Notes: generated from the letters alone by a model not told the origin. 64,000 nt of DNA from Octopus vulgaris (GCA_951406725.2 OX597814.1:95294001-95358000); one strand, 5' to 3'; positions 3,301 to 58,225 are shown, numbered from the stretch's first letter. Translations and numbers: made by a program.

Positions 3301-4420
3301 CATCATCATCATCATCATCTTCATTTAACGTCCGCCTTCCATGCTAGCATGGGTTGGATGGTTCAACTGGGGTCTGGGGAGCCCGAAAGCTGCACCAGTC
3401 CAGTCAGATCTGGCAGTGTTTCTACAGCTGGATGCCCTTCCTAACGCCAACCACTCCGAGAGTGTAGTGGGTGATTTTATGTGCCACCGACACAGGTGCC
3501 AGACGAGGCTGGCAAACGACCACGCTCGGATGGTGTTTTTTTCATGTGCCACCGACACAGGTGCCAGACGAGGCTGGCAGACGGCCACGCTCGGATGGTG
3601 TTTTTTATGTGCCACCGACACAGGTGCCAGACGAGGCTGGCAGACGGCCACGCTCGGATGGTGTTTTTATGTGCCACCGACACAGGTGCCAGATGAGGCT
3701 GGCAAACGGCCACGATCGGATGGTGTTTGTTACGTGCCCACAGCACGGAGGCCAGTCGATGCGGTACTGGCTACGGCCACGTTCGGATGGTTTTCTTGTG
3801 TGCCACGTGCCACCGGCACTGGTACCACAAAGATACAAATTCCATTGATGTTCATCTATTTTGATTTGTTTTGATTTTCACTTGCCTCAACAGGTCTTCA
3901 CAAGTGTCACAAGAAGGAAGGTATGCACAGGTGGACTGACTACGTCCCAGGTAGGGGCCACAGGTTATGGCCTGACTAGTCTTGCCGGGTCTTCGGATGG
4001 TGTTTTTATGTGCCACCGACACAGGTGCCAGATGAGGCTGGCGAACGGCCACGATCGGATGGTGTTTGTTACGTGCCCACAGCACGGAGGCCAGTCGGTG
4101 CAGTACTGGCTACGGCCACGTTCGGATGGTTTTCTTGTGTGCCACCGGCACTGGTACCACAAAGATACAATTCCATTAATGTTCATCTATTTTGATTTGT
4201 TTTGATTTGATTTGATTTGATTTGTTTTGATTTCATTTTGATTTTCACTTGCCTCAACAGGCCTTCACAAGTATCACAAGGAGGAAGGTATGCACAGGTG
4301 GACTGACTACGTCCCAGGTAGGGGCCATGGGATATGGCCTGACTAGTCTTGCCGGGTCTTCGGATGGTGTTTTTATGTGCCACCGACACAGGTGCTAGAT
4401 GAGGCTGGCGAATGGCCACG
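3301..4420 (-). mobile_element. 5'-truncated RTE LINE 3'UTR with internal tandem duplications
   Basis: Same 3' end and (CAT)n tail as the RTE at 5571-7343; about 60-bp unit repeated four times (about 3475-3730); a 340-370 bp block ending CTTGCCGGGTCTT (the ORF-end region of the RTE) is repeated at 3655-3993 and 3994-4360, with a partial third copy. Confidence 0.85.
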
Positions 4421-5570: not shown

Positions 5571-7343
5571 CATCATCATCATCATCATCATCATCATCGT
5601 CCAGCGTCCGCCTTCCATGCTAGCATGGGTTGGACGGTTCTACTGGGGTCTGTGAAGCCAGAAGGCTTCATCAGGCCCAGTCAAATCTGGCAGTGTTTCT
5701 ACGGCTGGATGCCCTTCCTAACGCCAACCACTCCGTGAGTGTAGTGGGTGCTTTTTACGTGCCACCCGCACTGGTGCCAGACAGAGCTGGCAAACGGCCA
5801 CGAACGGATGGTGCTTTTTATGTGCCACTGGCACGAGGGCCAGGCGTGGCTGGCAACAGACACGAAACGGGGCGGTGCTGGCAACGGTCGCGAAACGGAA
5901 AGTTCTCTTACATGCCACCGGCACTGGTAACACATCTGCAATTTCCATTGATCGATTTCCATTGATCGATTTCGATTCTGATCCTCACTTGCCTCAACGG
6001 GTCTTCACAAGCAGAGTTTTGACATGCCACCGGCACTGGTAGCACATCCGCAATTTCCATTGATCGATTTCGATTCTGATCCTCACTTGCCTCAACACGT
6101 CTTCACAAGTAGAGTTATGGACTCACTTGTCCTGCCGGGTCTTCTCGCGCACAGCACACTTCCAGAGGTCTCGGTCTCTAGTCATTTCCTCAGTGAGACC
6201 TAAAGTTCGAAGGTCGTGCTTCACCACCTCGTCCCAGGTTTTCCTGGGTCTGCCTCTTCCACAGGTTCCCTCAACCGCTAGGGTGTGGCACTTTTTCACA
6301 CAACTATCTTCATCCATTCTCGCCACATGACCATACCAGCGCAAACGTCTCTCTTGCACACCACAACTGATGCTTCTTAGGTCCAGCTTTTCTCTCAAGG
6401 TACTTACACTCTGCCGAGTGTGAGTACCGGCATTACACATCCATCGGAGCATACTGGCTTCATTTCTAGCGAGCTTACGCATATCCTCAGCAGTCACGGC
6501 CCATGTTTCACTGCCATGTAGCATGGCTGTTCGTACACACGCATCATACAGTCTGCCTTTCACTCTGTGCGAGAGGCCTTTTGTCACCAGCAGAGGTAAG
6601 AGCTCTCTGAACTTTGCCCAAGCTATTCTTACTCTAGCAGTTACACTTTCAGCACACCCGCCCCCGCTGCTGACTTGGTCACCTAGGTAACGGAAACTAT
6701 CAACTATTTCTAGTTTTTCTCCCTGGAAAGTGACGGAAGTTGGTCTCAGAGCATTTTCAGTGTTTATTGTTCCTGAGCATCTGCCACATACAAAAACCAT
6801 CTTCCTAGTTAGCCTTCCTTTGACATTGCTGCATCTCTTATGTGTCCATAGCTTACACTTAGTGCATCTTATAGAGTTTCTACCTACACCTTTTCTACAG
6901 ATCGAGCAGGGCCATCTACCTGAAGGTGTTTGTGATTTGTCTACCTTCCTACTGATTACGACTTTGGTTTTAGCTAGATTGACTCTGAGGCCCTTCGATT
7001 CTAATCCTTGTTTCCACACCTGAAACTTCTCCTCCAGTTCTGATAGCGACTCAGCAATTAGAGCAAGGTCATCAGCATAGAGGAGCTCCCAAGGGCATCC
7101 TGTCTTGAATTCCTCCGTTATTGCCTGGAGGACTATGATAAATAGGAGGGGGCTGAGTACTGAGCCTTGGTGGACTCCTACCTCTACCCGGAATTCTTCA
7201 CTGTACACATTTCCAACCCTCACCCTACTAGCGGCGTCCCTATACATGGCCCGCACAGCTCTCACTAACCATTCATCTATCCCTAGTTTCCTCATTGCCC
7301 ACCAGATAAGGGATCGGGGGACCCTGTCGAAGGCTTTCTCCAA
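5571..7343 (-). mobile_element. RTE-clade non-LTR retrotransposon, 5'-truncated, inserted in a (TA)n tract
   Basis: RT ORF plus about 550-bp 3'UTR ending in an (ATG)n tail (CAT repeat at 5571-5598); (TA)n on both sides; the 3' end is shared with many short copies (1440-1600, 10825-10948, 13480-13745, 32079-32380, 47138-47312, 48657-48915). Confidence 0.93.
6123..7343 (-). CDS. Partial RTE reverse transcriptase ORF (406 aa, uninterrupted, N-terminally truncated)
   Basis: Motifs (L)EKAFDRV, GVHQGSVLSPLLF, LLYADDL, GLRVNLAKTK, FRYLG, RRLRWYGHVARM, GRGRPRKTW are typical of RTE ORF2; starts at the truncation point, not a true start codon. Confidence 0.93.
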   Translation of the reverse strand: MEKAFDRVPRSLIWWAMRKLGIDEWLVRAVRAMYRDAASRVRVGNVYSEEFRVEVGVHQGSVLSPLLFIIVLQAITEEFKTGCPWELLYADDLALIAESLSELEEKFQVWKQGLESKGLRVNLAKTKVVISRKVDKSQTPSGRWPCSICRKGVGRNSIRCTKCKLWTHKRCSNVKGRLTRKMVFVCGRCSGTINTENALRPTSVTFQGEKLEIVDSFRYLGDQVSSGGGCAESVTARVRIAWAKFRELLPLLVTKGLSHRVKGRLYDACVRTAMLHGSETWAVTAEDMRKLARNEASMLRWMCNAGTHTRQSVSTLREKLDLRSISCGVQERRLRWYGHVARMDEDSCVKKCHTLAVEGTCGRGRPRKTWDEVVKHDLRTLGLTEEMTRDRDLWKCAVREKTRQDK

Positions 7344-7418
7344 GAAGGATATATATATATATTACGGAGATGTACTCGCATAGCAAGTAATTTGATCTAA
7401 GATCGTGTGCTGAAACGA

Positions 7419-36857: not shown

Positions 36858-38113
36858 CGTGCACACACGCACGTGTGTGTGTGTGTCCTAAAATGTTACT
36901 TCATTTATTCATTCTAAAAAGGATGAAACATGAAGTTGACCTGGACAGGACTTGAACTAAGAATGCAGAGAGCCAGATCACTTAATACAAGATATTCTCT
37001 CGTTTATTCTACTGACTCTACCAGTTCACTGCTTTTAGAGATTTAACACACAAAAAAAATGTGAATAGTGAGCACATGTTGATAATTTATTTGCTAATCC
37101 CCATTAAAGTATGTTAGCAACTAGTGTGTATGTGTGTGTGTTTTAGAGAGAGAATACAGGCAATCTATAAACTGAGGAAGATTCCAGTTGCACTGGGACT
37201 CTGTTGTTATTAATGGCTCTGACTGCATAAGAATCTCATGGAAAACTTTTATTGCTATTTGACCATCAGCATCACCATCACCACCACAAACATCGTCCTT
37301 TTATCTTCCAACTTCTCCCTGTCTTTCTTCTTCATCATCATCATCATCATTTTCATGGTTGTACACCAGTCATAATTGCATCAAGATTAATAGTAGTAAT
37401 CACAATTATAATGTTGTTGTTGTTGTTGTTGGTGGTGGTGGTGCTGGTGCTGGTGATGGTGCTGGTGATGGTGCTGGTAGAGGTTAGTTGTGGGGTGGGG
37501 GTATAGTGATGGCGAAGATGGTGGTACTATAAGAAGTAGCAAGAATATTTCATGATTGGGTAAGCACAGCTTAGATATATCGATTCTACCAGTATTTTTG
37601 AGTAATGATATGAAAACTAATTGAAACAACTTCTCTGAAGCATGTCTTTCCAATTATTTTGAATGTCTTATGTAGCAACGGTGCTAAGATGCACTGCTAA
37701 GAGTTCTCAATCATTGATTATATTTTATTACTATTATTATTATTATTATTTTTTGTTAAGGCAAATCATTTCTTTACAAACAATTCCAAAATTATCTTGA
37801 ATATCCTTCATTTTGGTGGTGTCATAATATTATTTCTCATGAAAATAGAAATGGGATGGAATTGTAACTTGCCGAGTTGAATGTGTGTCAATCTGCCAAT
37901 AGCATGGCTCACGTCTTGTTACTGACTGTGTTCTAACCATGGACACTAAACTAAATTCCTCTGTTTGCCTACACGAAGCCTACATGAGCTTCAAGTAGTT
38001 ACAGCTCAGTCCTATAAGAAGCAAGAAAAATCTAACATGTTTCTTTTACTTAAACCGGTCAAATTCAAGTATTTCTTTACACCTGTACAGAGTATTAGGG
38101 AATCATTCCGGTA

Positions 38114-38468
38114 CATTATTTACATTTGACGGATATTTGTCCTTATCTTGTTTGTTGTTAACACAACGTTTCAGCTGATAAACCCTCCAGCCTTCATCAG
38201 GTGTCTTGGCGGAAATTTTGAACCTGAGTTCTCATTCCTAAGGTATTTTTCGATGTTGTTGTTGTTGTTGTTGTTATTATTATCATTATTCAGGTCACTG
38301 CCTGGAATTGAACTCGGAATCTTGGAGTTAGTAGCCTGCGTTTTTAACTACTACGCTATATACCTACGGGCATATGGTGTAGTGGTTAAGAGCACGGGTC
38401 ACTAACCCCAAGATTCCGAGTTCAAATCCAGGCAGTGACCTGAATAATAATAATAATAATAATAATAT

Positions 38469-38516
<48 letters not shown>

Positions 38517-38664
38517 CATCGAAAAATACCTTAGGAATGAGAAGCCAGGTTGGAAATTTCCCCCAAGACACCTGATGAAGGCTGGAGGGTTTGTCAGCTG
38601 AAACCCGTCAAATGTAAATAATGTAAATAATGTACATAATTCCTCATCTCTTAAATATAGAACT
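38114..38664. mobile_element. Palindromic (head-to-head) SINE-like element with tRNA-type Pol III head and hammerhead tail
   Basis: Symmetry centre about 38365; A-box TGGTGTAGTGG 38375-38385, B-box GAGTTCAAATCC 38418-38429; (TAA)n linker; HHR in each arm; 14-bp TSD GAATC(A/C)TTCCGGTA at 38100-38113 and 38665-38678. Confidence 0.8.
38160..38205 (-). ncRNA. Minimal type I hammerhead ribozyme
   Basis: Minus strand: GACAC-CTGATGA-a GGCTG gagggtttat CAGCT-GAAA-CG-TT-GTGTT; palindrome AACGTT in place of stem III. The plus-arm copy (38567-38604) has lost the cleavage site and 3' stem I by deletion. Confidence 0.7.
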
Positions 38665-39084
38665 GAATCCTTCCGGTATTTACATTCAATTCAAAACTCT
38701 TTAATTTCCTTAGCTTCATCATTTGGTTTAATCTGGCTCTGATTATGAACAATATATGATAATTTGTTGGTTGATTAGTTGGTTGGTTGGTTGGTGTGTC
38801 TAGATCTATCTCATTTTAAATTCAGTATGCACAAGAGCACACCACCATATGGATATTTTATTTATTTCATTCAGATTTCACAATAATGACACAAGAATGA
38901 TAGTTCTGATGTTTAAGAGCTGGGGTTCAATCGCTGACCAAAGCCTTGTAAGTGGATTTGTTAGATAGAAACTGAAAGAAGCCTGCCGTGTGTGTGTGTG
39001 TGTGTGTATGTGTGTACATACATACACATGACAGTGTATGTGTGTGTGCCTTTAGTAGAAAGCAGCAGCAGTAGCAGTAGCAGC

Positions 39085-57341: not shown

Positions 57342-58225
57342 CAAGGGGGTACCCAAAAGTAATTGGAAATGTTCTCTGTGGGACAAGCCCATTATAGTTC
57401 AGGATTTGTCACTAGAAGCCACTTGATGCAACCCTCAGGTATCAATCTGCCAACCAGCAGCATCAAGTGTAGACCTACTGTCAAGAAGTGCATCTTTGTT
57501 TTGCAGTGCTTCTGTTTGTCAATTTTTGCAATGGCTGAAATGAAGGAACAGTATGCTTCTGTGAAAACCTGTTTTCTACTGATGAAAACAGTGGCTGACA
57601 CAGCTATCATACTTCAAAAAGCTTACATGGACGTCATCATGAGCAAAACACAAGTTTATGAGTGTTTTGCACACTTTACAAATGGTCACTTGTCACTTGA
57701 AGACCAATGTTACTCAGGGCAGCCATTAAATTTCCAAATTAATGAAAAAAACATCATGAAAATTCATGAATGGATCTTGGAAGACCATCACTGAACAACT
57801 GACAAACTTGTTGATATGACTGGTGTGTCCAGGAGCTCCTTCCAATGCATTTTGAGTGCAGAATTGTGAATGAAAAAAATTTGAGCTTTGCTTGCTCATG
57901 GAAGATCAAAAGCAGTCATAACTGAATGCATGTTGTGAACTGAAAGAGCAATTGGAAGTTGATCCAGACCTTTTTTCAAAGGTTATCATTGGTGACAAAA
58001 GCTGGTGTTACAGAATTTTCAGATGTGGAAGAAGTAAAGAAAAATGACAGAGGCTTTAAATGGCAACACTTCACAAGAGTTCCAGCACTGCTTCAAATAA
58101 AGGAAAATGTGCCTGGACATTGCTTCAAATGGAAAATACTTTGAAAGTGACAAAAATGTAAACATGTAAAACAAAGTGAATAAAATAATATTGCAAAATT
58201 CCAGTTTTTGGGGGGTACCTCCTCA
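57342..58225 (+). mobile_element. Internally deleted mariner DNA transposon
   Basis: TA flanks; imperfect TIRs C(A/G)AGG(G/A)GGTACCC; peptides MKEQYASVKTCF...MSKTQVYECFAHF...SLEDQCYSGQP (HTH region), DLFSKVIIGDKSWCY (first catalytic Asp region) and C-terminal ASNGKYFESDK. Confidence 0.88.

Follow-up and report, generated by a model that had tools for sequence, protein, structure and literature searches.

The window analysed here, the whole stretch of 64,000 nucleotides from Octopus vulgaris (OX597814.1:95294001-95358000), contains at 38100..38678 an insertion in which two arms diverge from a 2-nt centre (Table 1). The arms, linkers, hammerheads, one-arm tail and target-site duplication (TSD) reported in the earlier note are all present in the sequence where it had placed them, and each arm runs in the order head, (TAA)n, segment, hammerhead, AC-rich segment. 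The inverted arms are complementary to 88% over 38168-38290/38482-38604 and to 82% over 38256-38364/38369-38477, and the element is predicted to fold at -344.3 kcal/mol (z=-34). A second B-box-like motif described for the arms could be located, but it is degenerate in both window arms and lies in coding sequence, in the codons Q-V-R-N at the ORF start. An Rfam search of the element called neither a hammerhead nor a tRNA, and ARAGORN called no tRNA, relaxed settings included.

Table 1. Features of the two-armed insertion (positions in the window)
Feature	Position	Strand
Left TSD, 14 bp; last 3 nt (GTA) also match the left-arm end (priming microhomology)	38100..38113	+
Left arm: AC-rich segment 3' of the hammerhead, ending in a 9-nt repeat	38114..38159	-
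Left arm: minimal type I hammerhead, intact (core CUGAUGA and GAAA, palindromic ACGU stem III, GUU site, stem I); predicted cut after 38165	38160..38205	-
Left arm: segment with the Penelope ORF start ATG (38235-38233)	38206..38255	-
Left arm: (TAA/CAA)n linker	38256..38290	-
Left arm: tRNA-like head; A box (38358-38348) and B box (38315-38304) both decayed	38291..38365	-
Arm join: centre AC of a self-complementary 10-mer (ORF/head junction of the autonomous element)	38366..38367	
Right arm: tRNA-like head with A box (38375-38385) and B box (38418-38429)	38368..38442	+
Right arm: (TAA)n linker	38443..38516	+
Right arm: segment with the ORF start ATG (38537-38539); B-box-like motif (38548-38557) within these codons	38517..38566	+
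Right arm: 5' part of the hammerhead; 35 nt (cleavage site, 3' strand of stem I) deleted between 38604 and 38605	38567..38604	+
Right arm: remnant of the AC-rich segment, 9-nt repeats (in-frame N-N-V)	38605..38634	+
Penelope tail, 30 nt, right arm only; continuous with the ORF in autonomous copies	38635..38664	+
Right TSD, 14 bp, 1 mismatch to the left copy	38665..38678	+

A minimal type I hammerhead with a palindromic stem III is of the kind described for Penelope-like elements (PLEs) in the available text of PMC4209133. By motif and fold the family hammerhead is of this minimal type I; its core and stem I are intact in 41 of 116 arms. The tail-less end of the left arm probably corresponds to the inner RT start site, judging in part from the available text of PMC11167929. 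Elsewhere in the window, a 412-aa open frame with RT motifs at 6123-7361 (-) resembles by eye an RTE-like LINE fragment, ~70-nt units stand in tandem within a repeat element at 3329-3874 (+), where two frames are open, and a 143-aa frame at 57363-57794 (+) looks by eye like the N-terminus of a mariner transposase.

The arm as the pLTR of an autonomous Penelope element

In each arm we recognise the pLTR of an autonomous RT + GIY-YIG Penelope element that is abundant in this genome. It comprises the tRNA-like head, (TAA)n and the first ~55 ORF codons, which hold the minimal hammerhead and the tail, and the autonomous unit is ordered head-(TAA)n-ATG-hammerhead-tail-ORF-head. When the genome (2.8 Gb, 227 contigs) was searched with the RT fragment adjoining one copy, 9,496 candidates were obtained, and in 14 of 20 RT-anchored loci a head on the same strand lay ~550 nt after the RT segment, directly after the 3' region of the ORF. 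The tail is continuous with the 5' part of the ORF in autonomous copies, and copies of the form pLTR-ORF-pLTR were found (L344, L331, L333). The autonomous PLE with which the window repeat was supposed to share its 3' hammerhead region has thereby been found, and it shares the head too; the use of PLE rather than LINE machinery, proposed in the earlier note, is borne out by this pLTR identity and by the one-sided tails described below.

The ORF starts with the ATG before the hammerhead, and its N-terminus, across hammerhead and tail, aligns with the relative P0003. A decayed copy gave an RVT_1 match (E=2.7e-6), and the protein is 40% identical over 575 aa to P0069, the alignment covering the stretch of P0069 that Pfam assigns to GIY-YIG; on the family's own ORF, Pfam did not match GIY-YIG directly. 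Judged by its domain order and anatomy, with RT followed by GIY-YIG in a single ORF and flanking pLTRs that overlap the ORF start, the element is probably an EN+ PLE of the Penelope/Poseidon type. Its closest protein relatives are about 53-68% identical; an alignment scan gave relatives at 30-48% only, and the metagenome scan with P0003, viral contigs and the PDB returned no matches. A search for a second PLE family in the genome, as a control, returned mostly loci of the same family.

Where arms vary in length within their coding part, through a 9-nt repeat or a 3-nt deletion, the frame is kept; the deletion was seen in 7 of the 36 ORF-linked arms and in 18 of the 116 paired ones. No variant separating short arms from ORF-linked pLTRs was enriched in short arms at p<0.02. 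An independent SINE lineage is thus unsupported, since short arms and ORF-linked pLTRs carry the same variants. The idea of the head as a free-standing SINE was rejected because in 28 of 30 head-anchored loci further pLTR parts lie at most 1.5 kb from the head.

Heads without other pLTR parts within 1.5 kb occur in L091 and L097 (around 1470-1570) and are unexplained. Two loci on one chromosome, L316:1506-1830 and L317:1506-1830, have the same junction of ORF position 235 to the head start; they may have arisen by segmental duplication or belong to a non-autonomous subfamily with an internal deletion. In L047, L052, L055, L056, L059 and L070 the (TAA)n linker of the arm contains LINE fragments that themselves end in (TAA)n. 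An RT ORF is present in L059 (706 aa, RVT_1 + zf-RVT) and in L056, and these LINEs look like Dong/R4. Dong/R4 elements target TAA, and the (TAA)n linker therefore appears to be a landing pad.

Insertion signature across the family

Exact genome matches numbered 1,369 for a hammerhead 38-mer and 612 for a head 38-mer, with 0 for the reversed controls. Exact 20-mer matches rose from 1,080 just before the head to 5,148 in the head and 9,103 after the linker, where the reversed control again gave 0; corrected for decay (75 of 196 sampled arms exact), the counts become about 2,400, 15,200 and 23,800, with a ~six-fold drop before the head. The family thus comprises about 24,000 arms. With a median pair length of ~510-550 nt and its 5,148 head 20-mers, it has the size and copy number of a SINE (<1 kb, interspersed, at least 100 copies). 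The arms diverge from the majority at ~4.5% of non-CpG sites and 21% of CpG sites, and the window insertion was found in three public sequencing runs with different organism codes, which together indicate that it is old. No empty target site was seen in these three runs, whose flank contigs all run into the element.

Insertion structure was assessed at 104 loci, 20 of them BLAST-picked, 58 hammerhead-anchored and 26 head-anchored. A divergent pair was present at 79 and the partner was absent at 25. One arm carried the tail in 74 of the 79 pairs, neither arm in 5 and both arms in 0. A TSD of at least 8 nt was called in 54 of 74 pairs, compared to 7.75% of 400 shuffled pairings; the calls span 6-21 nt. 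One TSD around both arms agrees with the proposal that the element inserts as a single unit, and the TSD is no part of the consensus, as its sequence is different at every locus. A 30-40-nt tail at one end, an inverted 5'-truncated copy and a variable TSD make up the signature of a PLE insertion: in the available text of PMC8557442 inverted 5'-truncated copies are typical of PLEs and one-sided tails standard, and the Anolis Poseidon protein is described as cutting and extending both strands, its RT starting from two positions in the RNA, one at either limit of the tail (PMC11167929, available text).

The heads were retained unevenly. Among 40 hammerhead-anchored pairs, two full heads were present in 8 and no head in 4, the full head being on the tailed arm alone in 12 and on the tail-less arm alone in 7; in the BLAST-ranked pairs, a biased set, two full heads were present in 18 of 19. 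Pair lengths range from 159 to 2573 nt, the position of the centre is variable, and either arm, tailed or tail-less, may be the truncated one. The palindrome centre, whose constancy the earlier note proposed to check, is a variable junction, and the divergent Pol III promoters that it inferred are a by-product of insertion, since both heads are full in so few of the hammerhead-anchored pairs. The centre dinucleotide was GT in 6, AC in 3 and ambiguous in 5 of 14 cases. Two complete cDNA ends could form a 10-bp duplex (-11.8 kcal/mol, computed), and both centre orientations are expected because this duplex holds two G.T pairs.

At a polymorphic head site, the arms of the same locus agree in 26 of 30 cases. 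Private variants common to both arms of a locus numbered 28 in all sets, against a null of 8.9 (max 24), with one polymorphic site and L090 excluded (52 vs 20.5 when these are included); in the unbiased sets the signal was weak, with 11 against a null mean of 6.0 (max 17). Both arms likely come from one source locus, with gene conversion as the alternative. The palindrome forms at insertion.

Plain fold-back of one cDNA was considered as the sole mechanism and rejected: either arm can be the truncated one, and in 14 cases (7 + 7) among 55 hammerhead- or head-anchored pairs the head was full on the other arm while the tailed arm was headless. Among individual loci, L044:2449-2941 has two arms placed tail-to-tail (convergent), with tails on both, where the usual layout is divergent. 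Many of the loci L301-L390 have the tail and a short ORF start fused to pLTR parts in tandem (three units in L315), which points to frequent template jumping.

The tRNA-like head, the 5' ends and the template RNA

The head shares 51 of 74 positions with tRNA-Arg(TCT), scoring 63 against 43.5 for the best shuffle (27 tRNAs of 6 isotypes compared), where a SINE head should have at least 60% tRNA identity over at least 60 nt, and it matches a tRNA profile with an nhmmer E value of 1.6e-5. No comparable tRNA match was found in 80 related PLE loci. The A and B boxes are kept, the cloverleaf pairing is lost, and the head folds no better than shuffles; tRNA-like in sequence, it looks like a promoter and not like a tRNA. 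Pol III starts 18-20 nt before the A box and terminates at T4-T5.

In a survey of arm 5' ends (114 arms, 60 loci, two hand-picked), 31 ends fell at -29..+5, 1 at -99..-30 and 10 beyond -100, while 19 arms ended within the head and 53 downstream; 12 of all ends lay at +6..+20, and 11 arms ran into the ORF. Such a pile-up at the head start is what Pol III RNAs starting there would give. In this respect the tRNA-derived Pol III-type head proposed in the earlier note stands, as it marks where most templates begin, but it is not separate from the PLE. Heads continued into the ORF in 2 of 34 and 7 of 39 cases in the unbiased sets, and among the public-contig joints listed, 8 of 15 fall on 38366-38372, from eight different left positions. 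Of 58 heads with an intact 5' end that were joined to other sequence, 32 had a leader of at most 6 nt, 18 a palindrome-type and 8 an ORF-type leader; 13 keep 0-1 nt of leader and about 7-8 keep 6 nt. An extra A that is present in neither source was found in 6 of 8 heads with a leader of exactly 6 nt, which suggests a physical RNA end. Leader and head start together form a self-complementary 10-mer.

The majority sequence of the sense strand (2,590 nt, from 190 unique of 240 fragments, depth 30-118) lacks T4+ runs, as it does G4+ runs, but contains 30 A4+ runs. An earlier majority that included the 3' pLTR likewise had zero TTTT runs, and the sense strand as a whole (~2.7 kb) has none. For 822 codons the probability of zero TTTT was 0.035 with codon usage kept and 0.006 with Phe treated like other two-fold codons, while simpler nulls on the first majority gave 0.013-0.12. 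The observed/expected ratio of TTTT was 1.53 in the 80 related PLE loci and 1.39 in the 48 with matching T content, and one of these 48 had zero TTTT within the ORF. In a related PLE, L225:2501-4412, the ORF match is TTTT-free, the 3' UTR has six runs and the tRNA-like head is absent. All 18 related PLEs readable to the hammerhead, some of which are copies of one family, had 4-28 TTTT runs, the one with the clean ORF included. Decayed copies of the family, which are not independent of one another, contained 21 TTTT vs 124 expected, and a LINE in the same genome had 3 TTTT runs in 706 codons, as expected. The TTTT absence is a single observation in one family, suggestive but not proof.

Any explanation has to accommodate what was observed: the pLTR identity, the two-arm insertion signature, the 5'-end cliff and the absence of TTTT. 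From the last two we infer that transcription by Pol III is probably initiated at the head. We propose, with a probability of roughly 0.7, that the two head-to-head pLTR copies of the insert were made from a short RNA that Pol III is predicted to start there. Any copy retaining head and tail holds a promoter-like head and both RT start sites. Pol III would start ~6-12 nt before the head and, with no TTTT inside the element, would stop in the AT-rich flank, and internal RT priming would make the 3' end of this RNA irrelevant. The Penelope protein, acting in trans, would cut and extend both target strands from two RNA sites ~30 nt apart, an activity that is known in vitro for Anolis Poseidon (PMC11167929, available text) and would be shared by the octopus family; such cutting and two-site extension would leave the tail on a single arm and a TSD of 10-16 bp. 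Each cDNA would come to its own stop, no later than the RNA 5' end, which is the pattern seen among the arms. The two cDNA ends would be joined by microhomology, complete ends annealing via the self-complementary 10-mer to give the full palindrome of the window. Palindromic copies may serve as sources again, and the pLTR would then behave as a SINE of the very element from which it derives. These insertions probably do not require hammerhead cleavage.

Several points weigh against this proposal. The hairpin at the ORF/head junction (-9.7 kcal/mol, computed) could stall RT or guide joining by itself, and 12 of 114 arms end at +6..+20. Palindrome-type leaders could arise from cDNA-end fold-back or later deletion and not from palindromic sources. 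Short arms carry no distinguishing variant, private-variant sharing is weak in the unbiased sets, and 25 of 104 loci lack a divergent partner. The insertions may be ordinary 5'-truncated inverted insertions of a Pol II-transcribed Penelope, the head a passenger left by an old SINE that had inserted into the UTR, and the pile-up a product of RT stalling or microhomology joining at the hairpin. The inverted 5'-truncated copies and one-sided tails, standard for PLEs in the available text of PMC8557442, fit this explanation, as do the variants common to all short and ORF-linked pLTRs, the 11 of 114 arms that extend into the ORF, and the lack of G4+ runs, which points to some run avoidance that is not T-specific. 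However, the cliff persists where the partner arm is headless and in tandem template jumps, the ends cluster at -6..+1, beyond the 3' foot of the hairpin, the A and B boxes were retained though the cloverleaf pairing is gone, and a Pol II transcript leaves the lack of TTTT over 2.7 kb unexplained, given the ratios of 1.39-1.53 in related PLEs; we regard this origin as unlikely. The head might also be a processing signal at which RNase P or a similar activity cuts multimeric Pol II transcripts at +1, freeing unit-length RNAs. RNase P cuts tRNA-like structures within long RNAs, PLE tandems occur, and the 13 of 58 junctions with 0-1 nt of leader would agree with such a cut. Against it stand a head without cloverleaf, in which relaxed ARAGORN finds nothing, the about 7 junctions that keep 6 nt and the 18 that keep longer palindrome-type leaders, and a TTTT avoidance that would be left without a reason, all of which makes processing quite improbable.

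The remaining explanations concern the palindrome itself. Full palindromes at the top BLAST ranks (two full heads in 18 of 19, in the biased set) and palindrome-type leaders that suggest some palindromic sources might be taken to indicate an independent SINE, with a tRNA head and a PLE 3' end, that carries divergent Pol III promoters and is mobilised as an unvarying palindrome. Yet the head belongs to the autonomous element, the centre and the lengths (159-2573 nt) vary, two full heads are found in only 8 of 40 hammerhead-anchored pairs, and diagnostic SINE variants are absent. The separate SINE parasitising a PLE that the earlier note envisaged does not hold up either, as the arm in its entirety, and with it the head, is pLTR sequence of the autonomous element (contiguous with the ORF end in 14 of 20 RT-anchored loci) and holds the ORF start. 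Where a SINE is a non-autonomous family distinct from its partner, with a LINE as partner and a simple-repeat 3' tail, the arm is the partner's own pLTR, the partner is a PLE, and the 3' ends are the two PLE start sites. An independent SINE is very improbable on these grounds. The palindromic shape, the length of ~550 bp and the flanking TSD would also suit a DNA transposon of the MITE or fold-back kind with long terminal inverted repeats, but the ends are unequal through the one-sided tail where equal terminal inverted repeats would be found, the TSD varies over 6-21 nt instead of having a fixed length, 5' truncation affects each arm separately, and the arms are pLTR sequence linked to an RT, a linkage that refutes this explanation and leaves it practically no chance.

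Head-initiated Pol III transcription, the reading preferred here, can be taken one step further, to the autonomous element itself. An autonomous coding retrotransposon may have acquired a tRNA promoter within its pLTR and gone over to Pol III, its ~2.9-kb RNA being purged of TTTT and translated uncapped behind an A-rich (AAU/AAC)n leader, with copies of its end repeat serving as ready-made SINEs in ~10,000 hairpin insertions. We put this forward tentatively, at somewhat less than even odds; translation of an uncapped RNA is its weak point.

Relation to known systems

The published accounts cited in this section are compared as far as their available text goes. Autonomous retrotransposons are treated as Pol II products, and Pol III is assigned to short non-coding elements only (PMC10886601). 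A tRNA head followed by a 2.5-kb ORF free of Pol III terminators would, if true, be a natural exception to this rule. Both the way in which a PLE is transcribed and the ability of an uncapped Pol III RNA to supply RT become testable with it. The Pol III reading would, if true, amount to a LINE-SINE pair within one sequence; even without a Pol III coding RNA, the family offers a direct route from pLTR to SINE-like element. It also holds thousands of natural records of the two-site, two-strand priming that has been seen in vitro for one lizard element (PMC11167929). Its arms, mostly in inverted pairs, are ready-made putative dsRNA hairpins and candidate editing targets in a lineage for which very high hyper-editing has been reported (PMC5625713).

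The octopus element resembles the EN+ PLEs of the Penelope/Poseidon type (Penelope of D. virilis; PAc of Anolis, PMC11167929; PMC8557442) in having RT and then a GIY-YIG-like domain in one ORF, an ORF start that overlaps the hammerhead, a 30-nt one-sided tail, an inverted 5'-truncated copy, tandems and AT-rich targets. Unlike them, its pLTR has a tRNA-derived head with A and B boxes and a (TAA)n linker, its sense strand is TTTT-free, and most insertions of the family are pLTR-only and start at the head. The Schistosoma repeats SM-alpha and Sj-alpha (PMC6765202) also join a Pol III-type promoter to a type I hammerhead in an animal repeat. They are described there as non-coding tandems freed by ribozyme cleavage, whereas the octopus unit is the pLTR of a coding element, occurs in inverted pairs, and ends at the tail sites and the head, not at the ribozyme cut. 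The animal non-LTR retrozymes (bioRxiv 10.64898/2026.07.22.740005) are likewise non-autonomous and pLTR-derived with a type I hammerhead, but they are defined as tandem arrays with no tRNA head described. Tandem units bounded by hammerhead cleavage, characteristic of retrozymes and SM-alpha, are not what the octopus family consists of, as it is mostly dispersed inverted pairs with some tandems.

A small-RNA-derived Pol III promoter within a terminal repeat is known from the TRIMp3 elements Cassandra, Helenus and Ajax, which are non-autonomous LTR elements whose autonomous partners are argued to need Pol II (PMC10886601). The octopus family differs in that the promoter-like head lies in the autonomous element's own terminal repeat. 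Three tRNA-derived SINEs of octopus, OK, OR1 and OR2, were reportedly described by Ohshima and Okada in 1994, OR1 and OR2 being said to be of Arg origin. Set side by side by description, they possibly have the same kind of tRNA-Arg-like head as the arm, and the arm may already be one of these named SINEs. We found no report of a tRNA-headed or Pol III-driven PLE in the open-access literature. The layout, the tail and the hammerhead are thus known features of PLEs, Schistosoma repeats already combine Pol III with a hammerhead, and the non-autonomous TRIMs have Pol III promoters in their terminal repeats; what is new here is a TTTT-free sense strand of ~2.7 kb behind a tRNA-like head.
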